Origin: Syntrophorhabdaceae bacterium
Lineage (GTDB): Bacteria > Desulfobacterota > Syntrophorhabdia > Syntrophorhabdales > Syntrophorhabdaceae
Assembly: GCA_963666485.2 (NCBI GenBank)
Contig: CAXXUO010000001.1
Location: forward strand, 224,001-288,000
Direction of reading: 5' to 3'
DNA: 64,000 nt
Position numbers and translations under genes: made by a program
Notes under the pieces: generated by a model
Told to the model about the DNA's origin: nothing
What the model saw: only the letters and a program-made list of their open reading frames with translations
The model's database searches: none
Part shown: piece by piece, positions 5,820 through 42,666 of the stretch
How the letters are laid out: every line of letters begins with the position of its first letter
Position numbering within the stretch: the stretch's first letter is position 1

Positions 5820-7206
5820 CCGTATAAACCGAGGCTATTGCTTCAATAAGGTCTTTTTCGTCGTGCGCAAGGACCGTTCTCATGTCGAATATCAATCTTT
5901 CTTTTTCGATCCTGGCAATAACGGGGACCGGGCGGTCCCTCAAGCGCTTTTCGAAGGCATCGGCTGTTATAGCGGACGGGACAATGGCGATCGCCGAGGA
6001 AGGTATGACCATATCGGGAAAGCTGCCGCCTCCTACCTCCGATCCTGTGTGGACCACCGATATATCGGCACCCGGACACCGTTTCTTCAGGACCGATGCG
6101 AGACGCCGGGCCCTTTTGTCGAGGTTGTCCCTGGATTCGGATATCATTGCGATAGTCGGAATTTTCCGTGCAGCCGACGCTGCATCGAGGCATAAGAGGA
6201 GGGTTGCCTCAAGGCCCGCAAGGGTGAATTTGTCCGGTCTCAATGCCCTTGTTATCGGGTTGCGCTTTATGACATCTATGCATTCCTCTTTGCCGAGGAT
6301 TATTCCCGCCTGGGGGGCGCCTAAGAGCTTGTCACCGCTAAACGATATAACATCGAACCCAGTCTTCAGCTCCTCGGATATTATCGGCTCGCCCGTGTGG
6401 CCAAGGCTCTCGTGGGCATGGAAAAGCCCGCTGCCCGTGTCGAAATATGTCGGGATGCCATACCTCGCACCCAATCCCACCAATTCGCCCGAAGACGCTT
6501 CATGCGTGAAACCGCGTACACGGTAGTTGCTCGTATGGGCCTTCATGATGAGGCCCGTGTTGTCCCCGATCGCACGTTCGAAGTCTTCGATGTAGGTCCT
6601 GTTTGTCGTACCGACTTCCTTTAAGATTGCGCCGCTCTTTTTCATGACATCGGGTATCCTGAACGATCCGCCGATCTCTATGAGTTCGCCGCGCGAGATA
6701 ATGACCTCCTTGCCTTCTGCCAGGGCATTGAGGATGAGGAATACCGCTCCGGCGTTATTGTTCACCACAAGCGCATCCCCGGCAGACGTGAGCCTTTTCA
6801 AGACCGACGTACAGTGGTCATACCTGCTGCCGCGCACCCCTGTCACGAGGTTGTATTCGAGGTTGCAATACCCTGTTGCAACCTTCATGATGGCGTTCAC
6901 CGCTTCTTCGACGAGCACGGACCTGCCGAGGTTTGTATGGATTATCACTCCCGTCGCGTTTATAACACGTTTGAGGTGCGGCTCGACAAGGGCCTGGGCG
7001 AGGCGGGAGACCTCATCGACGATCGTATCAATGCCCGGCACCGCGACGGCGCGACCAGTCTTGATACCGGAACGAAGGGAATCGAGATATTCACGCAGGA
7101 CATCTTTCAGGATTGTTTCCGGGAAGCGAGCCTCGAGCTTCTTGAAACCCGGGTTCACAAGTATGGCATCGACCTTCGGTATCTTCCGCAACGGGTTGTC
7201 TGGCAT
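5809..7206 (-). CDS. selA: L-seryl-tRNA(Sec) selenium transferase
   Basis: VINATGVIIHTNLGRS, VNNNAGA, SRGELIEIGGSFRIPD, FSGDKLLG.PQAG. Confidence 0.97.
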   Translation of the reverse strand: MPDNPLRKIPKVDAILVNPGFKKLEARFPETILKDVLREYLDSLRSGIKTGRAVAVPGIDTIVDEVSRLAQALVEPHLKRVINATGVIIHTNLGRSVLVEEAVNAIMKVATGYCNLEYNLVTGVRGSRYDHCTSVLKRLTSAGDALVVNNNAGAVFLILNALAEGKEVIISRGELIEIGGSFRIPDVMKKSGAILKEVGTTNRTYIEDFERAIGDNTGLIMKAHTSNYRVRGFTHEASSGELVGLGARYGIPTYFDTGSGLFHAHESLGHTGEPIISEELKTGFDVISFSGDKLLGAPQAGIILGKEECIDVIKRNPITRALRPDKFTLAGLEATLLLCLDAASAARKIPTIAMISESRDNLDKRARRLASVLKKRCPGADISVVHTGSEVGGGSFPDMVIPSSAIAIVPSAITADAFEKRLRDRPVPVIARIEKERLIFDMRTVLAHDEKDLIEAIASVYTDAP

Positions 7207-11954: not shown

Positions 11955-13415
11955 TTAACCGAAGATACCGACGGCCTTCTGCGCCATCACTATGAATACC
12001 TTCGGGAAAATACCCATGTACAGGAGGGCCAATATGCAGATGAGCATGACAAGCCCATACTGGGGCGCCCGGTCGGCTGTTCCCGACTCAGCGACAGGTT
12101 CCTTGAAATACATGTACATCATCACCCTGAGGTAGTAGTATGCGGCCACGACGCTGTTCAGGAAGCCGATGATAGCAAGCCAGTAAAACTGGGATTTGAC
12201 CGCCGTACTGAAAACATAGAACTTGCCCATGAACCCGGCAAGCGGCGGCACGCCGGCAAGTGACAGGAGAAAGATACTCATGCAAAGGGCTATGAACGGG
12301 TAGCGTGCGCCAAGCCCTGCAAAACTGTCGAGGTCGCTTCCGTTGTCGCCCTTCCGCTGCATCATGATAACAGCGGTGAAGGCGCCGATGTTCATGAATG
12401 TGTATGCGGCGAGATAATACAGCATGCTCGACGCCTGGGCCCTGTCGCCCGTGATAAAGGCAACCAGGATATACCCGGCATGCGCAATGCTTGAATATGC
12501 CAGCATCCTCTTGATGTCACGCTGGACGAGCGCTGTGATGTTCCCGACGGTCATCGTAAGCACCGCCAAAACCCATATGATCTCCGTCCAGCCAAACTGG
12601 AACGGGAGGAACGCCGTGAAAAAGACGCGTATCAGTGCGCCGAATGCGGCGGCCTTCACACCGGTCGCCATGTATGCGGTTATCGACGTCGGTGCGCCCT
12701 GGTAAACGTCCGGTGTCCACATATGAAAAGGCACCGAAGCGATCTTGAACCCGAAGCCGACAAGAAGGAAGCCAAGGCCGATCAGGAACATGGTAACCGA
12801 GAACGGCTGTTTCATGAGGAAGTATCTCTTCAGTTCGACCACGTCTATTATGCCGGTGGACCCGTATATCATGGACATGCCGTACAGGAGAAACCCTGTC
12901 GCGAATGCACCGAGGAGAAAATATTTCAGGGCTGCCTCGACGGATGCGATATTGCCCCTCAAAAGGCCGCAGAGAACATAGATCGAAAGGGACATCACCT
13001 CGAGCCCGATGAATATCGTGATGAAATGATGCGACGAGGTCATGACCATCATGCCGAGAACGCCGAACATGAGCAGCGAATAATATTCGCCTCCCCCTAT
13101 CTCCTCCCGGTCGGCATATCTTAAGGAAACGAGTGACACGAGGATGAGGATGGCGAGGAACATTATTTTAAAGAAGGTCCCGTAATTGTCGATCGTGTAA
13201 AGCTGATTGAAGATATCGAGGTTCGTCCCCCACAGGTTGGCTGTGAAGATAAGCGCCAGCAGGGAGCCGAATATGCACAGGGAACCGGAGATCTTCGACG
13301 CCACGGGGCCCTTCGTCAGGCCGCCTATGATAAGCAGCAGAAGTCCGAACCCGGTGATCATGATCTCGGGTAATATCCATCTAAATTCGCAGGCTGGTAT
13401 TAAAGCGTCCATCAA
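11955..13415 (-). CDS. nuoN: NADH-quinone oxidoreductase subunit N
   Basis: EAALKYFLLG, FKIASVPFHMWTPDVYQGAP, KRMLAYSSIAH. Confidence 0.96.
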   Translation of the reverse strand: MMDALIPACEFRWILPEIMITGFGLLLLIIGGLTKGPVASKISGSLCIFGSLLALIFTANLWGTNLDIFNQLYTIDNYGTFFKIMFLAILILVSLVSLRYADREEIGGGEYYSLLMFGVLGMMVMTSSHHFITIFIGLEVMSLSIYVLCGLLRGNIASVEAALKYFLLGAFATGFLLYGMSMIYGSTGIIDVVELKRYFLMKQPFSVTMFLIGLGFLLVGFGFKIASVPFHMWTPDVYQGAPTSITAYMATGVKAAAFGALIRVFFTAFLPFQFGWTEIIWVLAVLTMTVGNITALVQRDIKRMLAYSSIAHAGYILVAFITGDRAQASSMLYYLAAYTFMNIGAFTAVIMMQRKGDNGSDLDSFAGLGARYPFIALCMSIFLLSLAGVPPLAGFMGKFYVFSTAVKSQFYWLAIIGFLNSVVAAYYYLRVMMYMYFKEPVAESGTADRAPQYGLVMLICILALLYMGIFPKVFIVMAQKAVGIFG

Positions 13416-13423
13416 TCAGACCC

Positions 13424-15010
13424 CTATCTCGTCATATTCGTGTTCGTTGCTTCAACTGCAACTTTCGCCGTGGACCCGGTATTCTGTTCAAGCATCCTCG
13501 CCTGGGCATTCCTGTTCTTGACGAGGCTTAAATACTCGGTAACCGATGTATCCATTTTATTGAAGAACATCTTCGGGTAGATACCCATCAGAAGGATAAA
13601 GAAGACCATGCAGCACAGGATGGTTATTTCGCGGCCTTCAAGGTCTTTGAGTTCCCTGTTGGCGTCCTTCGTAACAACGCCGAACATGACCCTCTGGAAC
13701 ATCCAGAGCATGTACACCGCGCCGAGGATGACACCCGTCGTCGCGAGTATGCCGTAGACCGTGTTGGCCTTGAACGCGCCAAGCAGGATAAGGAACTCAC
13801 CCACGAAGCCATTCGTCCCGGGCAGGGCTATGGATGAAAGCGTTATGATCATAAAGAAAACGGCAAATATGGGCATAACCTTCGAGATCCCACCGAAATC
13901 GGCGATCATCCTCGTGTGCCTTCTCTCATATATCATGCCGACGATAAGGAAGAGCCCGCCGGTGGAGATGCCGTGGTTGAGCATCTGGTAGATGCCGCCC
14001 TGGACGCCCTGCATGTTGAAGGCAAAAATACCGAGCATGACGTAACCTAAGTGGCTCACGCTCGAGAAGGCGATAAGCCGCTTGAGATCGGGCTGCATCA
14101 TGCTGACGATCGCGCCGTAAATGATGCCGATGACAGCGAGTATGGACATGAGGGGGACCGCATCAATCGCGGCAGCCGGGAACAGGGGGATCGCAAACCG
14201 GATGAAACCGTATGTTCCCATTTTCAGGAGAACACCGGCGAGGATGACACTGCCGGCGGTAGGTGCCTCGGTATGGGCATCGGGCAACCATGTATGCACC
14301 GGGAACATCGGCACCTTGATGGCGAACGACAGGGCGAATGCGCCGAACAGCCAGTACTGTTTCGCGATCGGTATACTCGCCTTATACAGTTCCATTACGT
14401 TGAACGTATAGATGCCGCTCTGTGCGTAATAGTAGAAGTACAGGTAAAGTATGGCGACCAGCATGAGAACGCTGCCTGCCATCGTGAAGAGAAAGAACTT
14501 TATGGCTGCGTAAATGCGGTTCGGGCCGCCCCATATGCCGATGAGAAGGTACATCGGGATGAGCATCAATTCCCAGAAAACGTAGAAGAGAACGAGGTCG
14601 AGGGCGCAGAGTGTACCGATCATTGCCGTTTCCAGGAAAAGGAACGTGATATAGTATTCCTTCACCTTGTCCTCGATCGCCTTCCATGAACAGAGCACAC
14701 AGATCACCGTGAGGAACGTGGTGAGAAGGACGAGCAGGAGGCTGATACCGTCAATGCCGATATAGTAGCTGATACCCCAATCCGGGAACCAGTCGGCTTT
14801 TTCGACAAACTGCATTCCCTTCGCTGTATTGCTGAACTTGTAAAAGAGCGGGACAGACGCGAAGAGTTCGAACAGGGAGAATACCAGCGTGGCAGACTTG
14901 ATGAGAAGGGTGTTTTCGCGCTTTACGAAAAGCAGCAGCACCGCCCCCAGAAGAGGGAAGAATATCAGGAATGTAAGTATTGGTATACCGAAAACTGAGA
15001 ACTCCGTCAT
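13424..15010 (-). CDS. nuoM: NADH-quinone oxidoreductase subunit M
   Basis: GIDGIS, FYVFWE, KVPMFPVHTWLPDAHTEAP, LPGTNGFVGE. Confidence 0.96.
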   Translation of the reverse strand: MTEFSVFGIPILTFLIFFPLLGAVLLLFVKRENTLLIKSATLVFSLFELFASVPLFYKFSNTAKGMQFVEKADWFPDWGISYYIGIDGISLLLVLLTTFLTVICVLCSWKAIEDKVKEYYITFLFLETAMIGTLCALDLVLFYVFWELMLIPMYLLIGIWGGPNRIYAAIKFFLFTMAGSVLMLVAILYLYFYYYAQSGIYTFNVMELYKASIPIAKQYWLFGAFALSFAIKVPMFPVHTWLPDAHTEAPTAGSVILAGVLLKMGTYGFIRFAIPLFPAAAIDAVPLMSILAVIGIIYGAIVSMMQPDLKRLIAFSSVSHLGYVMLGIFAFNMQGVQGGIYQMLNHGISTGGLFLIVGMIYERRHTRMIADFGGISKVMPIFAVFFMIITLSSIALPGTNGFVGEFLILLGAFKANTVYGILATTGVILGAVYMLWMFQRVMFGVVTKDANRELKDLEGREITILCCMVFFILLMGIYPKMFFNKMDTSVTEYLSLVKNRNAQARMLEQNTGSTAKVAVEATNTNMTR

Positions 15011-15020: not shown

Positions 15021-17006
15021 TTACAAGATTCTCGAAATAAGATAACCGACCACTGCTATCGCGCCGAGGATGACCGCAAATGCATAGCCCTGCACCGCAC
15101 CCGTCTGTACCTTGCGGATGATGCCGCCCACTCCGGCCAGGAGCGATGCGATACCATTCACGATGCCATCTACGATCATCTCGTCGAAAAAGTCTTTGCA
15201 GAACCTGCCGAGTTTCAGAAGGCCCCGCACGAATATGAAGCCGTACAGCTCATCTATGAAATACTTGTTATGGACCAGCGTGAACAGCCCGTGGAACTTT
15301 TCCACAAATTTCTTCGGGAGGTTCGGGTTCTTCACGTAAAAAAGCCAGGCGATGAATATGCCGAGGAGCCCGATGATAACGGCGCCTATCATGAGCTGCA
15401 TCTCCATCCCGTGATCGGCGCCCGCCGCTCCGCCGGATGAGGCGAATGCGGTGCTGATGATATTGAAGCCGCCCGCGTGCGCCGCAGCCGGTGCCGCATG
15501 GTGCCCAAATACAGGTTCCAGCCATTTCTCTATATGATTGGAGCCGCCGAGCAGGCCGGGGACGCCGACGTAGCCGCCGATTATGCTGAGGACCGCAAGG
15601 ATCATGAGAGGCACGGTCATAACCTTCGGAGACTCGTGGATGTGATGTTTTACCTCTTCATCCGCCCTGCATTCTCCGTGGAATGTGCTGAAGAACATCC
15701 GGAACATGTAGAACGCGGTCATGCCGGCTGTTATGGCGCCTATGGCCCAGAACCAGAAGCTGTTATATTTGCTGAAGGCCATCCAGAGGATCTCGTCCTT
15801 GCTGAAAAACCCTGATAAGCCCGGTACGCCCGCGATGGCGAGACATGCGATAAATGTCGTCCAGTAGGTGATGGGGGTTTTCTTGCGGAGCCCGCCCATT
15901 TTTCTCATGTCGAGTTCGCCGCTCATAGCGTGCATCACGGAACCGGCCGCGAGGAAGAGCAGGCCCTTGAAGAAGGCATGCGTCATGAGGTGGAAAACGC
16001 CGGCTGCGTATGCGCCCGCGCCCACACCGACGAACATGTAGCCGAGCTGGCTGACGGTGGAATACGCGAGGACGCGCTTGATATCGTACTGGGCTGTGCC
16101 GATCGTTGCGGCAAAGAACGCGGTCGCGAGACCGATGATCGTGACGACGAGGAGCGTCGTCGGCGCGAGGACGTACAGGAAATTAAGCCGTGCGATCATG
16201 TAGACGCCGGCGGTGACCATCGTGGCAGCGTGGATCAGCGAGCTGACAGGCGTCGGGCCTTCCATCGCGTCAGGCAGCCAGACATAAAGGGGTATCTGCG
16301 CCGATTTTCCCGTTGCGCCGACAAAGAACAGAAGCGTGATGACCGTTGCAAGCCCCGGCCCGATGAGGTGCGCGTTGGCCTGAATTTCGGAGAATTTCAA
16401 TGTCCAGATGCCCTGGGAGCCCAGGTACCCGACCAGCGTGAACACGCCGAGGAGGAACCCGAAGTCGCCGATCCTGTTGACGATGAACGCTTTTTTGCCG
16501 GCATTCGCCGCCGAGTCCTTTTCATACCAGAACCCGATGAGGAGATATGAACACAAACCGACGCCTTCCCACCCGACAAACATGAGAAGGGCGTTGTCGG
16601 CGGTGACCAGCGTCAGCATCATGAAAACGAACAGGTTGAGATAGCAGAAAAAGCGTCTGAACCCGGGGTCGTCGTGCATATAGCCGACAGAATAAATATG
16701 GATGAGTGAGCCGACACCCGAGACGATGAGGCACATGATGATGGACAAGGCGTCGATCCGGAACCCGATCGTTGTCTTGAGGTCGCCCGAGACGATCCAG
16801 TCGAACACGGTCTTTTCGAATACCCTGCTTTCCGGCGCCATCTGCAGGAACTGGACGAATATGGTTGCCGATACGGCGAAGGATGCAATAACAGCCAGGC
16901 ATGCAATCCAGGCGGTCAAAGTCTTCGGGAATTTTATCCCGAGAAGGCCATTGATCAGGAACCCGATCGCGGGAAATGCCGGAATAAGCCAGATAAGGTC
17001 AGCCAT
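15021..17006 (-). CDS. nuoL: NADH-quinone oxidoreductase subunit L
   Basis: GWEGVG, NRIGD, KSAQIPLYVWLPDAMEGPTPVS, HAFFKG. Confidence 0.96.
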   Translation of the reverse strand: MADLIWLIPAFPAIGFLINGLLGIKFPKTLTAWIACLAVIASFAVSATIFVQFLQMAPESRVFEKTVFDWIVSGDLKTTIGFRIDALSIIMCLIVSGVGSLIHIYSVGYMHDDPGFRRFFCYLNLFVFMMLTLVTADNALLMFVGWEGVGLCSYLLIGFWYEKDSAANAGKKAFIVNRIGDFGFLLGVFTLVGYLGSQGIWTLKFSEIQANAHLIGPGLATVITLLFFVGATGKSAQIPLYVWLPDAMEGPTPVSSLIHAATMVTAGVYMIARLNFLYVLAPTTLLVVTIIGLATAFFAATIGTAQYDIKRVLAYSTVSQLGYMFVGVGAGAYAAGVFHLMTHAFFKGLLFLAAGSVMHAMSGELDMRKMGGLRKKTPITYWTTFIACLAIAGVPGLSGFFSKDEILWMAFSKYNSFWFWAIGAITAGMTAFYMFRMFFSTFHGECRADEEVKHHIHESPKVMTVPLMILAVLSIIGGYVGVPGLLGGSNHIEKWLEPVFGHHAAPAAAHAGGFNIISTAFASSGGAAGADHGMEMQLMIGAVIIGLLGIFIAWLFYVKNPNLPKKFVEKFHGLFTLVHNKYFIDELYGFIFVRGLLKLGRFCKDFFDEMIVDGIVNGIASLLAGVGGIIRKVQTGAVQGYAFAVILGAIAVVGYLISRIL

Positions 17007-17020: not shown

Positions 17021-17332
17021 TTAGCCTTTAAGCAGATTGAATTCGTCTACGTGTACTGTGCCCTTGTGCCTGAAGATGAGCACGAATATAGCAAGGCCCA
17101 CCGCCGCCTCGGCCGCCGCAACGGCCATGATGAAGATGACGAAGATGGCCCCGTCAAGGGAATTCAGGAAATTACCCGAGGTGATAAAGCTCAGGTTGAC
17201 CGCATTCAGCATGAGCTCTATGCACATGAAGATCACGATCGCGTTCCGGCGCGTGATGACGCCGATCGCCCCGATGGTGAAAAGTACTGCCGACAACAGA
17301 TAATAGAGGTCCTGCGGTATCTCGGGCAACAT
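17021..17332 (-). CDS. nuoK: NADH-quinone oxidoreductase subunit K
   Basis: [22 protein letters not shown]. Confidence 0.96.
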
Positions 17333-17340: not shown

Positions 17341-17874
17341 CTATTCCTTTCTTTTCCTGGCAAGCAGCACCGCGCCGACGATACCGACAAGGAGAAGTAT
17401 CGAGGCGACTTCAAATGCGAATGCGTACTTGCCGTAAAGCAGGGCCCCAATCGCCCGGGTATTGCCTATCTCGGCGAGTTTCTGGGCGCTGTAGATGCCG
17501 TGCTGTCCTGAGTCGCTGTATGTGTATATGCCTGCAAGGACCTGCAGGAAGAGTGCTATCGTAATAATGGACCCGATGACTTTCGGGAAAGACTTTTTTG
17601 AGCCCCACTGTGCGCCCCATTCCAGGTGGATAAGCATGATAACGAAAAGGACGAGCATCATGATCGCCCCGGCGTATACCATGACCTGTGCGACTGCTAT
17701 GAAGGTCGCGTTGAGGGTGATGTACAGGACGGCGACGGAGAAAAATGTCACGATCAGCCATAATGCGCTGTGGATCGGGTTTTTACGTGTTACCATCATA
17801 AGGGATGAGCCCGTTGCCGTAAGGGCCATCACAACAAAGATAAACCATTTAAATCCGAGTCCAATTTCCATCAT
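17341..17874 (-). CDS. nuoJ: NADH-quinone oxidoreductase subunit J
   Basis: [33 protein letters not shown]. Confidence 0.95.
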
Positions 17875-18296
17875 TTTTTATCCTCATACATGGAAAGGAG
17901 TTTTTTCGTATCCAGCACAAAATCTTCCTTCCGGTAATGTGCCTGCTCGTAATCCTTGCCGAGGTTGATGGCATTGACCGGACATGCATCCTGGCAAAAT
18001 CCGCAGAAGATGCAGCGCCAGGGATCTATCTCGTATTTGACGGGGTAACGTTTCCCGTCGAATTTCTCGCCTATTTCAAGCGTGATGCACTGGTTCGGGC
18101 AGGCTGCCACGCACAGGCCGCACGCTACGCAGGCTGTCTCGCCGGCCTCGTTTTTCTTGAAATAATGCACGCCGCGCCATCTTTCCGGCACTTCGTGCTT
18201 CTTTTCCGGGTATTGGTACGTGATCGGCTTCGTGAACACCCGGGTGAACGTGAGCCGAAGTCCTTTAAGGAGAGGAAGGACTATCTTGTCTTTCAT
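17871..18296 (-). CDS. nuoI: NADH-quinone oxidoreductase subunit I
   Basis: TYQYPE, CVACGLCVAACP and CIFCGFCQDACP; ATG overlaps nuoH stop (TAATG). Confidence 0.94.
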   Translation of the reverse strand: MKDKIVLPLLKGLRLTFTRVFTKPITYQYPEKKHEVPERWRGVHYFKKNEAGETACVACGLCVAACPNQCITLEIGEKFDGKRYPVKYEIDPWRCIFCGFCQDACPVNAINLGKDYEQAHYRKEDFVLDTKKLLSMYEDKK

Positions 18297-19294
18297 TACA
18301 GCACCCCCATTGCCACGAGGGCAGCAGTTACGACAACGTTGAGAAGCGTCAGCGGCAGAAGGACCTTCCATCCGAACTGCATGATATGGTCATATCTCAA
18401 CCGCGGATAGGTTCCCCTCTCCCAGATGAAGAAGAAGATGATCACGAAGACCTTGATGATGAACCACAGCGGCCCGAGGTACGCGGGGCCGGGGCCCATC
18501 CAGCCGCCGAGGAAGAGCGTCGTGACGATCGCCGCGACCGTGAACATGTGGGCGTATTCCGCGATCATGAACGTTGCGAATTTCATACTGCTGTACTCAA
18601 TATTAAAACCGCATGCCAGCTCGCTTTCCGATTCCGGCATGTCGAACGGTGTCCTGTTTATTTCTGCAAGGCCTGCAACCAGGTAAAAGATGAAGCCGAA
18701 GGGATACTTGACGATGAACCAGAGCCCCGACTGTGCATTGACGATCTCGCGCAGGTTGAGCGACCCGGCGATGATGATCGTGCCTATTACGGCGAGGCCG
18801 AGGGCCACTTCGTAGCTGATCATCTGGGCCGCGGCACGCAGGGCGCCGAGGACGCCGTACTTGTTGCCGGACGCCCATCCGCCGAGGACCACCCCGTATT
18901 CGCCGAGGGTAGCGAGGGCGAGGAGGTAAAGGAGCCCGGTGTCGATATCTGCGACAACCATCTTGACCTGCCTGCCCAACAATTCCACGGTCGGCCCGAA
19001 CGGGATGACGGCGAACATGCTGAGCGCCGCAAAAAGTGATATGCCGGGCGCGAGCACGTATAACACCTTGTCGGCCTCATCGGGGATGATGTCTTCCTTG
19101 AAGAAGGACTTGACGCCGTCTGCGATCGGCTGGAGAAGACCGAAGGGGCCTACCCTGTTCGGCCCGGGCCTGACCTGCAGGCGGCCGAGGAGCTTCCTTT
19201 CAAGGAGAGTGGTGTATGCCACGCACCCCATGAGAACGGCCACGACGACGATGTTCTTAACGACCATTATACCTAACGTGATAAGCTGTTCCAT
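18296..19294 (-). CDS. nuoH: NADH-quinone oxidoreductase subunit H
   Basis: ERK...Q.RPGPNRVGPFGLLQPIADGVK, RTPFD, RLRYD. Confidence 0.97.
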   Translation of the reverse strand: MEQLITLGIMVVKNIVVVAVLMGCVAYTTLLERKLLGRLQVRPGPNRVGPFGLLQPIADGVKSFFKEDIIPDEADKVLYVLAPGISLFAALSMFAVIPFGPTVELLGRQVKMVVADIDTGLLYLLALATLGEYGVVLGGWASGNKYGVLGALRAAAQMISYEVALGLAVIGTIIIAGSLNLREIVNAQSGLWFIVKYPFGFIFYLVAGLAEINRTPFDMPESESELACGFNIEYSSMKFATFMIAEYAHMFTVAAIVTTLFLGGWMGPGPAYLGPLWFIIKVFVIIFFFIWERGTYPRLRYDHIMQFGWKVLLPLTLLNVVVTAALVAMGVL

Positions 19295-19297: not shown

Positions 19298-21691
19298 TTA
19301 ACCTTTTTTTACCGTCACTGCGATGTGTTTGGCATATCCATCGGTCAGATTCAATATGTCCTGCCTGTTCTTCAACATTCTATATTCAAGCACGCCCTTC
19401 TTCAGACCTTCTTTGATCATCGCAGGGTACTGCGCTTTTCCGTGATCGGATTCGATGACCACCTGGCCGCCTTCCGTGATCCCCAGTTCGTCAGCGTCCT
19501 CGCGCGAGATGAACAGCTTGTCGCCGGCGATCGCAGGGTTCTGGAGGTACGCCATTTTCGTATACACGCCCTTCCCTGCCAGGTGATGGTGGAAGAAGAC
19601 GTTCTTGAGGACAAGGGTGAACGGTTTCCGGGGGGCGCCTGCCCCGGCTGCGACCGGCGCGGCCTTTGCCGTACCGTTCGTGGGCTTGAGGCTCAACCGC
19701 CCGGACTCGCCCGTTACGATAAAATCCTTCTGGAAGACAACCGATGACGCCTCGGCCTCGTCCTTGTAGAGCCCGCCGCCCAGCCTGTCGAGGAGCATCC
19801 TCAGGAAATCGAACCCCGGCGACGCCTTGCCTTCGCCCCGTGCGACCGTGCGCACATATCCGTCCTCGGCGATATAGCTGCCCTCTTTCTGGGCGAAGCT
19901 GCCGGTCGGGACAACGACGTGGGCATATGCCGACGCGTTCGTTGCGAACATGTCGCATACCGCCATAAAGGCCTTGCCCTTCAGGGCTGCCTCGACGTTC
20001 TTGCCGGAAAGGTAGTGGAAAAGATCATCTTCATAGATGAAAAGCGCGTCCGCCTTGTTCAGCGCGTCCGATGGTGAAACCGCGCCGGGGAGGAATGACA
20101 GGGTGCCGACGGCATTCGACTGAAGGGCGGTCGGCATGACCACGCCTGTCTTCTGGATACCCTTCACGATACACAGGTTGAGGAGTGCCTCCATGCTCGC
20201 GATGTTGCCGCTTATGCCCGTGCCGAATATGACGGCAACAGACGATGCGTTCGAGAGGAGCTTGTAAAATTTATCAACGGCCTTTTCATCAGCACCGCTT
20301 GCCGCGACTGCATCGGCCTTGCTTCCGCTTAAACCCTCGATGCTCCCGGCATCCGGGTCGTTCTTCTTGTCGGCGATGAACTGGGCCGCTATTCCATTAA
20401 AGAATGCCGCATCCGAGCCCGGCGCGACCTTTACCCAGCAATCGCTGATGCGCGTGAGGTTCACGGGTGACGGGTCGACGACGGCTACTTTCGCCCCGGT
20501 GGTCTTCATGGCTTCCCGGACCTTGTTGGCGAGAAGGTGATTGTTCCCGAGAAGGTCCGCACCGGCAACGACGATGAGGTCGCATGTGTTCAGCGCGTCA
20601 TATTCATAAGGATACGGGATGCCCATCCGGCGCATCGTGTCGAGCACCTTGCCCGTATGGTAATACCCGGCAGTGCCAAAGACGGTCTTCGAAAATCCCT
20701 TCGCGATCTGCGTCACCAGGTAGGTTTCTTCGTTCGTTGCCCGCGGGGATACGATAAAACCGATGGTCTTGCCTTCTTTATCGAGTTTGGTCAACGCAGA
20801 TGCCGTTGCTTCTACGGCCTCGGCCAGCGTCGCTGCCGCTGCTTCCGCCCCCTGTTTGACCGTCGGTGCGGTAAGCCGCGCTTCGTTATTTGCGAAATCA
20901 TATCCAAAACGTCCCATCACGCACAGTGAGCCCTTGTTCGGCTCAAGCGACGCGTTCGTGACGACTTTCGTGATGAATTTGTCCTCGTACACATCGAGGT
21001 TGAGCGAGCACCCGAAACCGCAGTGCGGGCAGGTTGTCGTCTGCCGCTTTGTCTGCCATTTCCTGCTTTTCTGCGGGCTTTCCTGCTCGGTCAGCGCGCC
21101 GACGGGGCACATGAAGAGGCATTCGCCGCAGGAGATGCAGTCCTCGGGGACTGTCGGCTTCATCGCCGCCTCTATTCCCGTTCCCACAAGTTCCAGGACC
21201 TTCCGCCCGGATACCTCGCGGCATGCATGCACGCAGCGCAGGCACAGGACGCAGCGGTCCTCGGCATACCTGATCATCGCGGTCGCGTACGGTTTTACGG
21301 TCTTCGGCTCCCTATCCGCCTCGAGGTCGACACATTCGAGCCTGTGCTCGAAAACGAGGTCCTGAAGGCGGCACTCGCCGGCGGAATCGCAGTGCGGGCA
21401 TTCCAGCGGATGATTGATGAGGAGGAACTTAAGATATTCCTGGCGCATCGCGAAAAGCTTGTCGGACTGGGTCGTGACCGAGATACCCTCGATGGCGTTC
21501 GTCGTGCACGAGGCCATGGGTTTTTCGTACCCGTCGATCTCGACGATGCAGAGCCTGCAGGAGCCAATGGGAAGAAGGTTCTCGTGGTAGCACAGCGTTG
21601 GGATGTATATGTCGTTCTCCCGCGCAGCTTCGAGTATCGTCTTGCCTTCCTCTGTCTTTATCTCTTTGCCGTCTATCTTGAATGTTATCAT
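19298..21691 (-). CDS. NuoG/SfrA-like multi-Fe-S subunit with molybdopterin-oxidoreductase fold
   Basis: 2Fe-2S (IPTLC..SCRLC..SC), HPLECPHC....EC, CVLCLRCVHAC / CISCGECLFMCP, TCPHCGFGC..LC; ATG 21691 preferred, TTG 21712 alternative. Confidence 0.88.
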   Translation of the reverse strand: MITFKIDGKEIKTEEGKTILEAARENDIYIPTLCYHENLLPIGSCRLCIVEIDGYEKPMASCTTNAIEGISVTTQSDKLFAMRQEYLKFLLINHPLECPHCDSAGECRLQDLVFEHRLECVDLEADREPKTVKPYATAMIRYAEDRCVLCLRCVHACREVSGRKVLELVGTGIEAAMKPTVPEDCISCGECLFMCPVGALTEQESPQKSRKWQTKRQTTTCPHCGFGCSLNLDVYEDKFITKVVTNASLEPNKGSLCVMGRFGYDFANNEARLTAPTVKQGAEAAAATLAEAVEATASALTKLDKEGKTIGFIVSPRATNEETYLVTQIAKGFSKTVFGTAGYYHTGKVLDTMRRMGIPYPYEYDALNTCDLIVVAGADLLGNNHLLANKVREAMKTTGAKVAVVDPSPVNLTRISDCWVKVAPGSDAAFFNGIAAQFIADKKNDPDAGSIEGLSGSKADAVAASGADEKAVDKFYKLLSNASSVAVIFGTGISGNIASMEALLNLCIVKGIQKTGVVMPTALQSNAVGTLSFLPGAVSPSDALNKADALFIYEDDLFHYLSGKNVEAALKGKAFMAVCDMFATNASAYAHVVVPTGSFAQKEGSYIAEDGYVRTVARGEGKASPGFDFLRMLLDRLGGGLYKDEAEASSVVFQKDFIVTGESGRLSLKPTNGTAKAAPVAAGAGAPRKPFTLVLKNVFFHHHLAGKGVYTKMAYLQNPAIAGDKLFISREDADELGITEGGQVVIESDHGKAQYPAMIKEGLKKGVLEYRMLKNRQDILNLTDGYAKHIAVTVKKG

Positions 21692-21704
21692 TCCCGTTCC
21701 CTTT

Positions 21705-23654
21705 TCAGCCAACTGCGATCATGCCTATTCTGTAACAGCGAAGGCAGCGTGACGCCTCCGTGATCGCCTCATCGGTCCGGAACCCTTCCTCGAACTCTTC
21801 GAACGTCCATTTCCTGACCTCGGGGGCCATCGGCCGAAGCAGCATTCTCGGATGGTCGCCGAGGAACCCGACGTTCTCGTTCTTGTCGTACACCTTGAGC
21901 TGACCGAAGAACTTCACGTACTTTTCGCTTTCCCTGGCCTTTGGCTTCTCGCCTTTCAAATATTCGTCGATCTTCCAGGCCGCGCGCTTGCCGTTCCCGC
22001 AGGCGCGGACGAGGACATCGGGACCCGTTTCGCAGTCGCCGGCCGAGAATATGCCGGGGATGTTCGTCTCGAACGTCTCCTGGTCAACCTGGAAGGTGTT
22101 CCACTTTGTGATCGTGAACTCTTCCTTCTTTTCGAGGAATGACCAGTCGATCGCCTGCCCGATAGCCGGTATCAGGATATCGGTCTCGATCACGAATTCG
22201 GAGCCCGGAACGGGGACCGGCCGCCTGCGGCCGCTGGCGTCCGGCTCGCCGAGTTCCATGCGGATGCACTCGACGCCGACAACCTTGCCGTCCTTCTCGA
22301 TGACGCGTGACGGGTTGCACAGGTAATGGAACTCAACGCCCTCTTCCTCTGCCTCGTGGATCTCGACGGGGTCCGCAGGCATTTCCTTCTTCGTCCGCCT
22401 GTATACGAGGTGGACGTCGGGCTTGCCGATGCGGAACGATGAGCGAACACAGTCCATCGCAACGTTGCCGCCGCCGACAACCACGACCTTTTTCCCCTCG
22501 GGATACGGGTCTTTGCCGTTATTGATGTCGAGCAGGTATTTTACGCCGGCGATAAACCCGCGATAACCTGCGTCCTCACCCTGGACACCCATAGGCTGTG
22601 ACGTATGGGCCCCGACACCGATAAAGATCGCATCGAATTCCTTGCGCAGCTGCTCGAGGGTGATATCCTTTCCCATCTCGACGCCATACTTCATGGTGAC
22701 GCCGAATGATTCAACAAATTTGCCCTCAACGTCAAGGACCATCCTCGGCAGACGATAGTCGGGGATGCCGACGGCGGCCATTCCGCCCGGCTCGCCGAGT
22801 TTCTCGAAGACCGTTACCGGATATCCCATCTGGGCAAGGTAATATGCGCAGGAAAGACCGGCAGGGCCGGCACCGATAACAGCAACCTTCTTTGTTTTAT
22901 CTATCTTCGGCACGATATCGCGCTTGACGTTCTTGTCAATTTCCCAGTCCGCGACAAATCTCTTGAGGCTTTTTATGGAAATGGATTCATCGATGTTCGC
23001 GCGCCGGCAATTCGATTCGCACGGCCTTACGCAGACCCGCCCTAAGGTGCCGGCCATGCAGGTGTTCTCGCGGACGGTCTTGAGCGATTCGGTCATCCTT
23101 CCTTCGCTTATCGCCTCGACGTATGCCGGGATATCGAGCTGGCTCGGACAGACGCTCATGCACGGGGCGGTCACGGAGATCCTGTAATCGCCCGGTTTTG
23201 CCTTGCGGCCTTCGGCTATCGACTTGTCGAACTCGGGGCCGAAGAAATCGAGCGCCTGAAGGAGCGGCACGAAGCCGGTCTGCCCGATCTGGCATTTCGA
23301 CCCGTCCTTGATCTCGGCGGCGATAGCGCGTATCTTGCCGAGGTCTTCTTTCTTGCCCTTGCCGTCGGCGATCCTTTTCAGCGTTCCCAGGATAACCTTG
23401 CTTCCGATCCTGCACGGTATGCACCGGCCGCAGGATTCTTTCTGGACCGCCTCGGCGTACTTCACGGACATATCGATTATGTCCACGTTCTCATCGCAGA
23501 GGATGATGCCGTCCCATCCCATGAACGCCTTTACGGAAAGACCATTCTCGAACTCTCCGGGGAGCTTGACCTTCGGGGCTTCGAAAGACTCACGGGCCTT
23601 GCCCCTATTGTCTATTACCTCACCCTGCCAGGAACTAAAGATCACGTCAGCCAT
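21705..23654 (-). CDS. SfrB/GltD-like FAD-NAD(P)H oxidoreductase with N-terminal NuoF-type 4Fe-4S domain
   Basis: VIFSSW...AFMGWDG N-terminus as in Geobacter SfrB; ESCGRCIPCRIG; APC..VCP, GRVC..PCE..CRR; GAGPAG; GGGNVAMD; YRR; EASRCLRC. Confidence 0.88.
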   Translation of the reverse strand: MADVIFSSWQGEVIDNRGKARESFEAPKVKLPGEFENGLSVKAFMGWDGIILCDENVDIIDMSVKYAEAVQKESCGRCIPCRIGSKVILGTLKRIADGKGKKEDLGKIRAIAAEIKDGSKCQIGQTGFVPLLQALDFFGPEFDKSIAEGRKAKPGDYRISVTAPCMSVCPSQLDIPAYVEAISEGRMTESLKTVRENTCMAGTLGRVCVRPCESNCRRANIDESISIKSLKRFVADWEIDKNVKRDIVPKIDKTKKVAVIGAGPAGLSCAYYLAQMGYPVTVFEKLGEPGGMAAVGIPDYRLPRMVLDVEGKFVESFGVTMKYGVEMGKDITLEQLRKEFDAIFIGVGAHTSQPMGVQGEDAGYRGFIAGVKYLLDINNGKDPYPEGKKVVVVGGGNVAMDCVRSSFRIGKPDVHLVYRRTKKEMPADPVEIHEAEEEGVEFHYLCNPSRVIEKDGKVVGVECIRMELGEPDASGRRRPVPVPGSEFVIETDILIPAIGQAIDWSFLEKKEEFTITKWNTFQVDQETFETNIPGIFSAGDCETGPDVLVRACGNGKRAAWKIDEYLKGEKPKARESEKYVKFFGQLKVYDKNENVGFLGDHPRMLLRPMAPEVRKWTFEEFEEGFRTDEAITEASRCLRCYRIGMIAVG

Positions 23655-23662: not shown

Positions 23663-24835
23663 TTATTTATCTATTTCGCCGAGGACTATGTCGATGCTTC
23701 CTATCGCTGCGACAACGTCGGCGACCAGCGATCCTTCTATCATCTTCGATATCGAGCCGAGGTTCAGGAATGAAGGCGGCCGGATCCTCACCCGGTAGGG
23801 TTTCTCCGTACCGTCGCTCACGATGTAGAACCCGAGTTCGCCCTTCGACGACTCGATAGAGGCGTAAGCCTCGCCTTTGGGCGGCCTGAAGCCGTCCGTC
23901 ATCAACTTGAAATGACGGATGAGCGCCGCCATATCATTCGCCACGTCTTCCTTTTCCGGGGGCACGTACGCCGGGGCGTCCGCTTTGATCGGTCCCTCGG
24001 GAAGTTTGTCGATGGCCTGCTGCACGATCCGTATCGATTGCCTCATCTCCTTCAGCCTGACGAGGTACCGGTCATATACGTCACCCTTCGTTCCGAGAGG
24101 TATCTCGAAATCGAAGTCTTCATAACTGGAGTACGGGTAGGCCTTGCGTACGTCATAGTTGACACCGGAAGCACGGAGCACCGGGCCCGTTACGCCGTAC
24201 GTGATCGCGTCATCGGCGCTCAAGGGACAGACGCCTTTCAGACGGCCTTTCCATATCACGTTCTCTGTGAGCAGGGTCTCGTACTCGTCTATCCTGCCCG
24301 GAAGTTCCTTGATCAAGGCCTGCGCCTCTGCGAGGAAACCTTCAGGCAACTCTTCGCGCAGACCGCCGAAACGTATGTAATCGGGCATGAGCCGTGCGCC
24401 CGAGACCTTTTCCAGGAGCTTCAGGCATGATTCCCTTTCACGGAAACCGTAGAAAAGGACCGTCATGGCACCCATGTCGAGGGCGTGTGTCGATACCCAC
24501 AGGAGATGCGCCGCGATGCGCTGCAATTCGCTCAGCATGACCCGGATGTACTGGGCCCTTTTCGGGATCTCGACGCCGATAAGCTTCTCGACGGCGAGGA
24601 CATACGCGAGGTTGTTGGACATGCCGCTTGTATAGTCGAGCCTGTCGGTCAGCGGCATACCCTGCCAGTACGTTCTGTTCTCGAAGATCTTTTCTATCCC
24701 GCGATGGAGATACCCAATGTCCGGGACGCTTGAAACGATCGTTTCGCCGTCGAGTTCAAGAACCACCCTCAGAACCCCGTGTGTTGCGGGGTGCTGAGGC
24801 CCCATATTGATCGTCATGTACTTTGTGTCAGCCAT
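23663..24835 (-). CDS. nuoD: NADH-quinone oxidoreductase subunit D
   Basis: NMGPQHPATHGVLR, GYLHRG, DRLDY, SIDIVLGEIDK; no NiFe CxxC motifs. Confidence 0.97.
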   Translation of the reverse strand: MADTKYMTINMGPQHPATHGVLRVVLELDGETIVSSVPDIGYLHRGIEKIFENRTYWQGMPLTDRLDYTSGMSNNLAYVLAVEKLIGVEIPKRAQYIRVMLSELQRIAAHLLWVSTHALDMGAMTVLFYGFRERESCLKLLEKVSGARLMPDYIRFGGLREELPEGFLAEAQALIKELPGRIDEYETLLTENVIWKGRLKGVCPLSADDAITYGVTGPVLRASGVNYDVRKAYPYSSYEDFDFEIPLGTKGDVYDRYLVRLKEMRQSIRIVQQAIDKLPEGPIKADAPAYVPPEKEDVANDMAALIRHFKLMTDGFRPPKGEAYASIESSKGELGFYIVSDGTEKPYRVRIRPPSFLNLGSISKMIEGSLVADVVAAIGSIDIVLGEIDK

Positions 24836-25327
24836 TTATGCCTTCTCCAGGTCCACCACGAAACGCTTGTCGAAATCCTTGCCTTCGAGGGGAAACTCCT
24901 TGCACAGGGGATGTCCCTCGAAATCGTCGGGGTTATAGATCCTGCGCAGGTCGGGATGGTTAGCGAACGGCACGCCGAACATGTCGTAAATCTCCCTTTC
25001 GAGGAAATTGGCCGCCGGCCACAGGTCGCTGACCGTTTCTATGCCTTCGTCGCCGCATCTCGTCTTCACCACGATCCGTGCGTTGGTCTTGTGTGAGCGG
25101 AGGATGTACACGATTTCGAAGCGCGCCTCCTCGCCCATGTAATCGATCGCGAACATATCGACGAGCATGTTGAAGCCAAGGTCGCGGTCATATCGGCAAT
25201 GGTCGAGGGCTTCACGGATGCTGGCCTTGTCGACCATCGCGCTCGGCTCGCCGGGAGGGGTCGGTACGATCTTTATCCCGTCGGCCTTGCCGGAGAGTAT
25301 GTCCAAATATTCTTTATTATCGCTCAT
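24836..25327 (-). CDS. nuoC: NADH-quinone oxidoreductase subunit C
   Basis: [36 protein letters not shown]; start MSDNK chosen. Confidence 0.93.
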
Positions 25328-25818
25328 GCGCTCTTCCCGGGCAGTGATATCAAAGGCCTGTCTTTGATCGTTTCTTTCTGGATCTTCTTCTGCAGTTCTA
25401 TAATACCGGCCAGCAATGCCTCCGGCCTCGGAGGGCATCCGGGGATATATACGTCAACGGGGATTATCTGGTCCACCCCCTGAACAACGCTGTATGACCG
25501 GAAGATACCGCCGGATGACGCGCAGGCGCCGTATGCGATGACCCATTTCGGGTTCGGCATCTGCTCATAGATCCTGCGGACAACGGGGGCCATCTTCTTC
25601 GACAGCGTGCCGGCCACGATCATGAGGTCTGACTGCCTGGGTGACGGGCGGAAGACCTCCGCGCCGAAACGGGCGATATCGTATTCCGCGCAGCTGGCGA
25701 CCATCATTTCGAGGGCGCAGCAGGCAAGGCCGAACGTGACAGGGAAGAGGGAGTTTTTCCGGGACCAGTTTATAAGCCAGTCGACTGTTGATACCAATAC
25801 GTTGTTTTCTATTCCCAT
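25324..25818 (-). CDS. nuoB: NADH-quinone oxidoreductase subunit B
   Basis: [31 protein letters not shown]; start MGIEN chosen. Confidence 0.96.
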
Positions 25819-26162
25819 TCCAATGCACCTTTTTTCCAGATATAGAGATATCCTATGAAAAGAATGAACACGAAGATGATCATCTCGACGAACCCGAAAA
25901 GCCCGAGCCGCCGGGTGACCACCGCCCACGGGTACAGGAAGATGATTTCAATGTCGAACACGAGGAAGAGCATGGCAACGATATAATAGCGGATCGTCAT
26001 GATACGCTGGGTCGGCCCGATCGTCGTCATACCGCATTCGTAGGGGGCAAGTTTTGCTTTGGATTTCGTCCTGTGTCCGAGAACATGTGAAAAACCGATT
26101 ATAGCGGCGGCTATGATCCCGGCAAGACACATCATGACAAAGATCGCTACATATTCGAGCAT
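25809..26162 (-). CDS. nuoA: NADH-quinone oxidoreductase subunit A
   Basis: [26 protein letters not shown]. Confidence 0.96.
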
Positions 26163-26229: not shown

Positions 26230-26283
26230 TTGTTCACAATTTCACAATGGCAAACTTTATCTTAATTTTGACAGTCTTGTCAA
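26230..26283 (-). promoter_or_regulatory. sigma70 promoter of nuo operon with Rex-like operator
   Basis: TTGACA (26283-26278)-18 nt-TAAAGT; TTGTGAA-ATTG-TGAACAA at 26247-26230 (2 mismatches to TTGTGAAN4TTCACAA). Confidence 0.6.
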
Positions 26284-35969: not shown

Positions 35970-36983
35970 ATGGATACTATTTACAGACTATTGTACACCA
36001 TCGGGTACCATCATCCGCTGCACCCCGCCATGACGCATATACCCGTCGGCCTCATTATCGGCGCATTCATCCTTGCCATCCTCAGCCTTGCATTCCATCG
36101 TGACAACATGGCCCGGGCGGCCAAATCCTGTGCCGTGATCGCCCTCGTATCCATCTTTCCCACAGCGTTCCTCGGTATAATGGACTGGCAGCATTATTTT
36201 GCCGGGGGATGGATCTATCCCGTCGAGATAAAGATCGTACTGGCATCGCTGCTTGTCATTATCCTTTGCATGGCCGCCATAATCCTGCGCAACGGGCCTG
36301 CATCGACTAAAGCCGTTGTCATGTGCGGGTTGTCCTCCCTGATCGCGCTGGGGCTGGGTTATTTCGGAGGGCAGCTCGTATACACGGGCAGGGTCCCGGC
36401 GGCATCGCCGGGGTTTGAAAAAGGGGCGTACCTGTTCCGTGCGAACTGCAGCGGCTGCCATCCCTATGGCGGCAACATCGTGGACCGCGATGCTATTCTC
36501 ACCGGATCGCCCGAGTTAAGGGACCTCAAGGCATTCGTCCGTTTTATCAGGGACCCGCGCCTGGACAATGGTAAAAGGGGACCCATGCCCGTTTTCACAC
36601 GATCGAGGATCCCGGATGCCGAGGCGCAGGTTTTATGGGCCTATCTTTCGGACGCCGTGGGACCTAAGAAAGGGGTCCCGGGTGAAGTGCAGGTACCCGA
36701 CATCACGGTCAGGACCGCTTCCGGAAGCGTTAAAAACGGGGCAAAACTCTTCAAAGCAAATTGCAGCGGATGCCACACTGTCGAAAGCACCGAAACCATC
36801 ATCGGGCCGGGGTTGAAAGGTATACTAAAGAGGCAATTATTACCTGTAAGCGGCCGCCCGGCCTCGCCGGCCAACATCTATCGCCAGTTAAAGGCCCCGT
36901 ATAAAGAGATGCCATCTTTCTCAACAAAATTGACCGACGACCAGGTACTGGATATTATTGCGTATTTAAATACCCTGTCATGA
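35970..36983 (+). CDS. Membrane-anchored diheme c-type cytochrome with DUF2231-like N-terminal membrane domain
   Basis: HPLHPAMTHIPVG plus about 4 TM; two ANCSGCH motifs with distal GPMP / EMP; AAGGAG RBS. Confidence 0.85.
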   Translation: MDTIYRLLYTIGYHHPLHPAMTHIPVGLIIGAFILAILSLAFHRDNMARAAKSCAVIALVSIFPTAFLGIMDWQHYFAGGWIYPVEIKIVLASLLVIILCMAAIILRNGPASTKAVVMCGLSSLIALGLGYFGGQLVYTGRVPAASPGFEKGAYLFRANCSGCHPYGGNIVDRDAILTGSPELRDLKAFVRFIRDPRLDNGKRGPMPVFTRSRIPDAEAQVLWAYLSDAVGPKKGVPGEVQVPDITVRTASGSVKNGAKLFKANCSGCHTVESTETIIGPGLKGILKRQLLPVSGRPASPANIYRQLKAPYKEMPSFSTKLTDDQVLDIIAYLNTLS

Positions 36984-38429: not shown

Positions 38430-38830
38430 TATAATTTTTTGCCAGCTACGCCAATTCGGGCTATAGCCCGAAGAAGAGCCATTTCCATCATCTTATATTC
38501 TGCCTGGTCGTAGGTCAGGGATTTCAGCAGTTCTTCGGCTCTCTCCTGCGCCTTCTTTGCCCGTATGACATCAATGTCCTGCGCGCGTTCAGCCGTATCG
38601 ACAAGCAGGGTGACCTTATCCTCGACGACCTCGGCAAACCCGCCGCTTGACGCCAGGTAGACGGTCTCGTTACCCTTCTTGTACCGTATTTCGCCTATTT
38701 TAAGGACAGTAAGGAACTGCGTGTGGCCGGGCATGATGCCGAATTCGCCTTCAGTGCCGGTGGCCTCCAACACATCGACCTCGTCCTTGACAATTGTCTT
38801 CTCAGGGGTAACTATCTCAAGACTGAGCAT
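38429..38830 (-). CDS. atpC: ATP synthase epsilon subunit
   Basis: LEIVTPE, GEFGIMPGH, GGFAEV. Confidence 0.96.
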   Translation of the reverse strand: MLSLEIVTPEKTIVKDEVDVLEATGTEGEFGIMPGHTQFLTVLKIGEIRYKKGNETVYLASSGGFAEVVEDKVTLLVDTAERAQDIDVIRAKKAQERAEELLKSLTYDQAEYKMMEMALLRAIARIGVAGKKL

Positions 38831-38833
38831 GTA

Positions 38834-40255
<1,422 letters not shown>

Positions 40256-40272
40256 CTATCTTCCTCCTTGGA

Positions 40273-41133: not shown

Positions 41134-41152
41134 TTAAAGCTCCCTTACTCGA

Positions 41153-42661: not shown

Positions 42662-42666
42662 AGACA

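Follow-up and report, generated by a model that had tools for sequence, protein, structure and literature searches.

A complex I operon with a formate dehydrogenase/SfrAB-type protein pair in place of nuoEFG in a Syntrophorhabdaceae bacterium

In a 64,000-nucleotide stretch of the genome of a Syntrophorhabdaceae bacterium (contig CAXXUO010000001.1, positions 224,001 to 288,000; hereafter the window, in whose numbering positions are given unless another sequence is named), an operon of complex I genes carries the genes of a flavoprotein and of an Fe-S protein resembling NuoG and formate dehydrogenase (FdhA) in the place of nuoEFG. We consider it somewhat probable that the operon encodes one membrane complex, in which eleven core subunits are joined by a two-subunit input module of the NADP-formate-dehydrogenase/SfrAB type, and that this complex links NADPH to quinone.

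Results

The thirteen genes lie on the minus strand in the order nuoA-B-C-D, a 649-amino-acid (aa) flavoprotein, an Fe-S protein of about 800 aa and nuoH-I-J-K-L-M-N (Table 1), as given by the list of open reading frames (ORFs) and by Pfam scans. All eleven conserved subunits, NuoA-D and NuoH-N, have Pfam matches, and NuoB, NuoC and NuoD also score above the NCBIfam cut-offs. With three gene starts (nuoB, nuoC and nuoI) refined against orthologs, the intergenic gaps of the operon range from −13 to +14 nucleotides (nt), which leaves no room for a hidden nuoE; those around the flavoprotein/Fe-S pair, from nuoD to nuoH, measure 8, 13 and 3 nt. The ORF of the Fe-S protein also opens at TTG 21712, which would give a product of 804 aa (19298-21712). 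Neither PF01257 (NuoE) nor PF01512 (the flavin mononucleotide (FMN) domain of NuoF) matches any of the 13 operon products. The gene order, its tight coupling and the lack of nuoE and of an FMN-type nuoF are thus as described in the initial annotation, which had singled out exactly the two middle ORFs.

NuoD aligns with Nqo4 of Thermus thermophilus (2fug_4) at 455.8 bits, and its H38 and Y87 fall on a His and a Tyr that we take, from the T. thermophilus structure papers, to be the quinone-site residues His38 and Tyr87. With these residues, the N2 pattern and the two NuoI cluster motifs kept, the quinone (Q) module looks intact at the sequence level. Canonical complex I (T. thermophilus Nqo1-14, Escherichia coli) and the window operon share the eleven core subunits, the N2, NuoI and quinone-site residues, a NuoF-type [4Fe-4S] domain and a NuoG-like Fe-S chain with N1b-, N4-, N5- and N7-type motifs. 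They differ in the input module: canonical complex I has NuoE and the FMN/NADH domain of NuoF, whereas the window operon has a GltD-type module for flavin adenine dinucleotide (FAD) and NADPH instead.

Three Pfam domains follow one another along the flavoprotein, NADH_4Fe-4S (residues 63-144), Fer4_20 (162-242) and Pyr_redox_2 (255-553), and the motifs ESCGRCIPCRIG, GGGNVA and YRR stand at 73-84, 394-399 and 418-420, respectively. These matches and positions confirm that a NuoF-type cluster is fused to a GltD-type core with GGGNVA and YRR, as had been claimed. The NCBIfam NuoF model aligns with the protein over its last 113 positions only (298-410; 64 bits, cut-off 558), and the only PDB matches of the N-terminal part of the flavoprotein are to the cluster domain at the C-terminus of NuoF/HydB proteins. 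The best whole-protein NCBIfam models are GltD-like, all of them below their cut-offs. Among PDB structures, the best matches to the GltD-like part are the NfnL-like portions of NfnA/StnC (9n5u_A, 9bov_A and 8oh5_C, at most 391 bits), followed by NfnB/NfnL of Thermotoga maritima (335 bits to NfnB) and Pyrococcus furiosus, and then by GltD. A separate identification, GltD itself (the small subunit of glutamate synthase), was ruled out, as the flavoprotein scores below the cut-offs of the GltD equivalogs TIGR01317 and TIGR01318 and the adjoining genes are nuo, not GltB.

The sequence VYRRT of the flavoprotein aligns with VYRRT of T. maritima NfnB, in which Tyr310 and Arg311-312 bind the NADP phosphate according to a 2019 preprint (bioRxiv 10.1101/717884), and the Stn paper takes GxGxxA for an NADP(H) motif. 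Its SLKRF aligns with QLKRF of Thermococcus sibiricus NfnA and RLERF of T. maritima NfnB. The NfnABC paper gives three Cys and Lys-165 of NfnA as the ligands of cluster A7, with Glu in NfnSL; the aligned Lys is this Lys-165, since the chain numbering is offset by 8, as verified on Ala-198, Asp-217 and Arg-234. The C-terminal 35 residues of the flavoprotein (…EASRCLRC) correspond in the alignment to residues 1-42 of T. maritima NfnB (…EAQRCLQC); the cluster-binding segment is, to judge from these alignments, circularly permuted in a way common to NfnA/StnC. Because this Cys segment is permuted, the Fer4_20 match sets in only at profile position 29 in the flavoprotein, as against position 1 in the genome's NfnB-like paralogs. 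Across 40 aligned sequences, the ligands of the NuoF-type cluster (C75, C78, C81 and C121) are invariant, and so are C165, C169, C208, C212, C216, K231, C637 and C640, the GxGxxG of the FAD site, G394-A399 and the residues Y418, R419 and R420. The flavoprotein tree resolves four supported groups, the relations among which are unsettled. One relative carries a second copy of the flavoprotein gene (G014:C27:12862-14820) with three in-frame stops (TGA, TAG and TAA), probably a pseudogene.

The arrangement recurs in related genomes. One genome per species was scanned, which gave 213 stretches with relatives; the best 80 of the 213, mostly metagenome-assembled genomes (MAGs) labelled Syntrophorhabdus, Syntrophaceae, Syntrophales or Thermodesulfobacteriota, were classified by script. 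In this synteny survey, a check proposed with the initial annotation, the order nuoD-flavoprotein-G-like-nuoH is kept in 51/80 loci, and the arrangement is therefore not a matter of chance. A further nine loci read nuoD-flavoprotein-nuoH, one reads nuoD-flavoprotein-G-like up to the end of the DNA, and in five the DNA begins at the flavoprotein with nuoH next, so that a nuo context is found in 66/80 loci, at identities down to 54-60%. No nuo context surrounds the flavoprotein in 11/80 (five with an FdhA-like neighbour, six without one), and the class of the other three is undecidable. Two loci from Desulfobacterales MAGs (L085:9998-17046 and L093), in which the flavoprotein has no FdhA-like neighbour, place it about 1 kb upstream of a TetR-EtfB-EtfA-(CCG-domain Fe-S oxidoreductase) cluster.

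A second sample comprised 40 other genomes of the same order, in which a flavoprotein ortholog was defined by at least 62% identity over nearly the full length and canonical NuoG by at least 47% identity. The ortholog is present in 19/40 genomes (families f1, 2/17; f2, 0/2; f3, 14/18; f4, 3/3) and canonical NuoG in 12/40, all of f3. Both forms occur together in 11/40, the variant alone in eight and the canonical form alone in one, a co-occurrence pattern that fits two enzymes with different jobs, as far as gene presence can indicate. The window genome is unusual in its family for having both the variant and the canonical operon: a canonical NuoG like its own is found in 0/17 other sampled genomes of the same family and in 12/18 of a sister family (47-69% identity), a distribution that would fit horizontal acquisition of the canonical operon.

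The Fe-S subunit carries the Pfam domains Fer2_4, NADH-G_4Fe-4S_3, Fer4_Nqo3, Molybdop_Fe4S4, Molybdopterin and Molydop_binding and keeps the NuoG/FdhA motifs for the 2Fe-2S, the His-ligated 4Fe-4S, the di-cluster and the Molybdop_Fe4S4 sites; all of its Fe-S ligands are invariant in 30 orthologs, at identities down to 32%. It scores 334.3 bits on the NuoG equivalog TIGR01973 (cut-off 470), and its best PDB match is the alpha subunit of the formate dehydrogenase of R. capsulatus (255 bits; NuoG chains reach about 184 bits). In the alignment, a Tyr (…AGYYHTG…) occupies the position of the FdsA Cys (…ARVCHSP…) that is presumably the Mo ligand. With Tyr in place of this Cys or selenocysteine (Sec), the G-like subunit cannot be a conventional formate dehydrogenase, and the loss of the catalytic ligand together with the retention of the Fe-S ligands suggests selection for electron transfer, not for catalysis. 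Like the window protein, its 17 closest relatives all have this Tyr; their motif is AGYYHTG, except in two with AGCYHTG.

Other members of the survey carry FdhA genes with a Sec codon. In Syntrophaceae-type operons, the in-operon copy reads …IDNGARLSSGSS… at the active-site segment, and a second gene, often upstream of nuoA, reads …IDHCARL*HSSTV…, where an in-frame TGA marks the Sec position. The upstream Sec-FdhA of this type is short in L049, L051, L052, L056, L058, L068, L071, L079 and L080, where it has no NuoG-like N-terminus (matches begin at query residue 214-228 or thereabouts), and the full-length in-operon copy of these loci is predicted to be catalytically dead. An in-operon G-like copy is missing from 9/80 loci, eight of which have a G-like gene upstream of nuoA (the exception, L066, is a short contig); this upstream full-length FdhA has a Sec codon in 7/8 (L069, L072, L073, L074, L078, L089 and L090) and a Cys instead in L060. 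Pairs of the flavoprotein and a Sec-FdhA standing alone occur in L081, L086, L094 and L095.

When aligned with eleven Sec-FdhAs, the G-like subunit scores 353-381 bits (31-35% identity) with seven and 125-276 bits with the remaining four, of which three gave partial matches only; the scores with canonical NuoGs are 127-177 bits (22-24% identity). By these scores, the G-like subunit is more similar to most Sec-FdhAs than to canonical NuoG. In a first quick tree, the in-operon G-like copies form one clade nested among the Sec-FdhAs. In a tree without one long-branch row, canonical NuoG attaches inside the in-operon copies, and the approximately unbiased (AU) test does not reject in-operon monophyly (p = 0.18). 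We therefore claim only the greater similarity to FdhAs than to NuoG and no direction of descent.

Beyond the window, the genome (99% complete, 10 contigs) has five matches to PF01512 and five full ones to PF01257. One NuoE/NuoF pair lies inside a complete canonical nuoA-B-CD-E-F-G-H-I-J-K-L-M-N operon on the same contig (at about 804-819 kb), three adjoin [FeFe] hydrogenase (HydA) genes, one of these three being the 1017-aa fusion described below, and one adjoins an FdhA-like gene. There is no obvious spare nuoEF because each of the five pairs belongs to a unit of its own, and the separate input module that the initial annotation had asked to be looked for thus has no obvious candidate among them, judged by gene neighbourhood. 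NuoD of the variant operon shares 46% identity with the genome's canonical NuoCD, and the G-like subunit shares 24% with its canonical NuoG; to judge from sequence, the variant and canonical complexes are old paralogs.

GltD-type modules with YRR are also fused to or lie beside [FeFe] hydrogenases in this genome, which counts in favour of the proposed complex. A 1017-aa protein (L107:6968-10021; genome G000, contig C1, about 1350968-1354021) consists of a partial NuoE-like part, a full NuoF (FMN domain and 4Fe-4S) and a GltD-like part with YRR. Its gene lies directly upstream of an [FeFe] HydA gene, its NuoF::GltD fusion is 45% identical to the window flavoprotein over residues 29-641, and orthologs of about 1020-1070 aa occur in many genomes of the order. 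A 1142-aa polypeptide (L110:4783-8211; same contig, about 1214783-1218211) joins a GltD-like FAD/NADPH module to the catalytic domain of an [FeFe] hydrogenase, an architecture that suggests an NADPH-linked hydrogenase.

Discussion

In the complex that we propose to be assembled from the thirteen products, a hydride from NADPH, used in preference to NADH, would be passed to the FAD of the flavoprotein's GltD-like module. Single electrons would then travel through the two [4Fe-4S] clusters of the flavoprotein to the NuoF-type cluster, along the 2Fe-2S/4Fe-4S chain of the catalytically dead FdhA-like subunit, and via NuoI and NuoB (N2) to a quinone bound at NuoD/NuoH, with electron transfer presumably coupled to proton translocation via NuoL/M/N. 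The reaction would be reversible and, in a syntroph, would most likely also run backwards in vivo, quinol and the proton-motive force reducing NADP+; the resulting NADPH could feed the NADPH-type [FeFe] hydrogenases that the genome also encodes. For a syntroph-type anaerobe such as this one, the reverse direction is attractive. The two readings offered by the initial annotation, an NADPH:quinone oxidoreductase or a reverse-driven NADP+ reductase, would both fit all of our observations. More tentatively, a quinol:NADP+ oxidoreductase driven by the proton-motive force might supply the step of reverse electron transport so far missing in syntrophs (Syntrophorhabdales, Syntrophales), raising electrons from acyl-CoA oxidation to NADPH, which [FeFe] hydrogenases of the NADPH type would vent as H2.

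Several observations weigh against such a complex. The YRR motif is present in 5/5 GltD-like paralogs checked in the genome and, being thus common to the family, does not prove NADPH specificity in this protein. The flavoprotein occurs outside any nuo context in 11/80 loci, five times beside an FdhA-like gene, and its module can therefore work without complex I. A second, canonical complex I coexists in the genome. In the window's own family, the ortholog is found in 2/17 other genomes, so that the variant is not needed for that lifestyle in general. As for the quinone, profile searches of the genome found no MqnA/D and neither MenB nor MenD above cut-off, and a MenA-like prenyltransferase stays just under its own (91 vs 102 bits); the only clear quinone-pathway matches are two MenG/UbiE-type methyltransferases above cut-off. 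A 2026 survey of Smithellaceae likewise terms menaquinone 'unresolved'.

SfrAB and FdhAB are soluble enzymes. To the extent that SfrAB of Geobacter sulfurreducens and the NADP+ FdhAB can be likened to the window pair by published descriptions and names, they have the same beta subunit, a NuoF C-terminal cluster domain with a GltD-like FAD/NADPH module, and the same alpha layout, a NuoG-like N-terminus with a molybdopterin-oxidoreductase fold. They differ in that the window pair is embedded in a nuo operon and its alpha subunit has no Cys/Sec ligand. Close relatives of the flavoprotein are named 'formate dehydrogenase (NADP+) beta subunit' by the Joint Genome Institute (JGI), and SfrB has been placed in the GltD-like group (PMC7483475). 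NfnABC and StnABC, transhydrogenases of the Bfu type (9n5u, 9bov and 8oh5), share with the flavoprotein YRR, the Lys among the cluster ligands and the CxxC segment at the C-terminus; in them, electrons from NADPH enter a NuoG-like cluster chain via the FAD. In these enzymes, however, the GltD-like part is inserted in the NuoG-like polypeptide and NuoE- and FMN-NuoF-like subunits are required, whereas in the window system it is fused to the NuoF C-terminal domain, with no gene for a NuoE/FMN subunit adjacent. NfnSL (NfnAB) has an NfnS (PyrK-like) partner, a Glu-ligated cluster and an N-terminal Cys segment, none of which is found in the window system.

Alternative input modules on complex I are a known theme. 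The 2019 preprint cited above proposes that an NfnB homologue with Tyr-Arg-Arg replaces NuoF in a nuo operon of Sulfurimonas denitrificans (Suden_1824). Compared by this description only, the Sulfurimonas non-canonical complex I shares with our proposal the idea of a NuoF-replacing NfnB homologue for reverse electron transport; it differs in belonging to another phylum, in having two NuoG copies and in that bifurcation to ferredoxin is hypothesised. The flavodoxin-dependent complex I of Campylobacter jejuni is grouped with the Sulfurimonas variant as a related non-canonical complex I. A second nuo cluster of Geobacter is described only as having NuoBCD and NuoI-2 subunits, with no sign in that description of a flavoprotein module. 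A search of the full-text literature found no paper on the arrangement in Syntrophorhabdus, Syntrophorhabdales or Syntrophales; the genome paper on S. aromaticivorans (Nobu 2015) may discuss it.

Four other explanations have to be weighed. The pair might be a soluble SfrAB-like NADPH oxidoreductase that is only co-transcribed with an 11-subunit 'headless' complex I fed by ferredoxin or another carrier; published papers describe 11-subunit complexes without the N-module as common in anaerobes, and the 11/80 loci without nuo genes agree with this explanation. We nevertheless regard it as unlikely: the pair stands precisely where nuoEFG would, with 3-13 nt between the genes, in an order kept in most of the surveyed loci (51/80), its FdhA-like partner has no catalytic ligand yet retains all Fe-S ligands, and a soluble dehydrogenase with NADPH as its sole substrate site would be harder to explain. 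A complex that is attached as proposed and uses NADH or both nucleotides, and would thus be a functionally ordinary complex I isozyme, has a small chance of being correct. The nucleotide specificity is read from motifs alone, among them the YRR common to all GltD-like paralogs, and the Stn paper reports weak NADH-dependent dye reduction by Stn; the phosphate-binding Tyr-Arg-Arg and GxGxxA, in contrast, are invariant in 40 sequences, and the co-occurrence of a canonical NADH-type operon here and in 11/40 genomes of the order argues for different roles.

Electron bifurcation or confurcation, in which NADP(H) at the FAD would be coupled both to the quinone-directed chain and to ferredoxin, was raised in the initial annotation on the grounds of kinship to GltD/NfnB. 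The kinship itself is borne out (335 bits to T. maritima NfnB), and the Sulfurimonas preprint proposes such a coupling for its NuoF-replacing homologue; the step from kinship to bifurcation, however, seems improbable to us. K231 ('LKRF') and the C-terminally permuted CxxC match NfnA/StnC; in NfnSL, by contrast, the ligand is Glu ('LERF') and the segment lies at the N-terminus. The NfnABC paper describes the FAD of NfnABC as an NADPH entry point with a single exit path and not as the bifurcating site, and Pfam finds neither an NfnS-like gene nor a NuoE/FMN-NuoF 'flavobicluster' gene in the operon. That formate oxidation or CO2 reduction persists in the FdhA-like subunit, which would make the enzyme a formate-linked complex I, is very improbable, since Tyr stands at the Cys/Sec position in the window protein and its 17 closest relatives and no FdhA gene lies upstream of nuoA in the window, even though the Molybdopterin and Molydop_binding domains are kept and relatives have Sec-FdhA genes beside or replacing the in-operon copy.

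If the favoured reading of one NADPH- and quinone-linked complex is true, a complex I with this nucleotide specificity and a head derived from formate dehydrogenase would be unprecedented among purified enzymes; we know of no purified complex I shown to use NADPH, although no search aimed at this was made. Complex I variants without NuoEFG are common in anaerobes and their donors mostly unknown; in this case the gene content of the operon points to NADP(H) as a candidate donor or acceptor. In its carriers, which degrade aromatic compounds and fatty acids in syntrophy, the enzyme would bear on how quinol electrons are raised to the level of H2 or formate, and its design would show an exchange of input modules between soluble dehydrogenases and complex I. 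Surveys that demand all of nuoA-N would overlook the variant. The 2026 Smithellaceae survey reports nuoA-N in 5, 4, 38 and 0% of its four groups, and a 2015 phylogenomic study of complex I built the phylogeny on all 14 subunits.

Additional features of the window and the genome

The coordinates of the operon genes and of the canonical operon are collected in Table 1. The promoter-like site listed upstream of nuoA is a candidate only, as the regional total of such sites is not above that of shuffles.

Table 1 Genes and sites of the variant nuo operon in the window and location of the canonical operon
Feature	Position	Strand	Basis
Promoter-like site upstream of nuoA (TTGACA, 18 nt, TAAAGT)	26254..26283	-	consensus scan, 10/12 matches
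nuoA	25809..26162	-	PF00507, 125 bits
nuoB, start refined; CC...C...C ligand pattern of cluster N2	25324..25818	-	PF01058; NF005012, 251.5 bits (cut-off 116)
nuoC, start refined	24836..25327	-	PF00329; TIGR01961, 123.6 bits (cut-off 122.45)
nuoD, quinone-site subunit	23663..24835	-	TIGR01962, 582.9 bits (cut-off 459)
649-aa flavoprotein: NuoF C-terminal [4Fe-4S] domain and GltD/NfnL-like module	21705..23654	-	Pfam, NCBIfam, PDB alignments, invariant ligand columns
797-aa NuoG/FdhA-like Fe-S subunit, from ATG 21691	19298..21691	-	Pfam, FdsA alignment, relatives, invariant columns
nuoH	18296..19294	-	PF00146, 413 bits
nuoI, start refined to ATG 18296; two CxxCxxCxxxCP motifs	17871..18296	-	Pfam, motifs, ortholog lengths (137 aa)
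nuoJ	17341..17874	-	PF00499
nuoK	17021..17332	-	PF00420
nuoL	15021..17006	-	PF00361 and PF00662
nuoM	13424..15010	-	PF00361 and PF01059
nuoN	11955..13415	-	PF00361, 249 bits; after nuoM in related loci
Canonical complex I operon	L105:4418-19004 (G000 contig C1, about 804.4-819.0 kb)		

Elsewhere in the genome, two HydA-like proteins are encoded without the usual hydrogenase partners (L108:6275-8401 and L106:3121-4860). One is fused to HisKA/HATPase histidine-kinase domains and the other adjoins a gene for a SpoIIE-type phosphatase; from this context, both look like sensory [FeFe] hydrogenases.

In the window, an F1Fo ATP synthase operon (b', b, delta, alpha, gamma, beta, epsilon; 38429-44125, minus strand) lies 12 kb upstream of the nuo operon and is adjoined by parB (44262-45077, minus strand), and the selenocysteine synthase gene selA (5809-7206, minus strand) lies downstream of the nuo operon. 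A plus-strand gene at 35970-36983 encodes a 337-aa protein with a DUF2231 membrane domain and a C-terminal mono-haem cytochrome c domain; it adjoins the genes of ALAD and of two radical-SAM/SPASM enzymes, which may act in haem biosynthesis.

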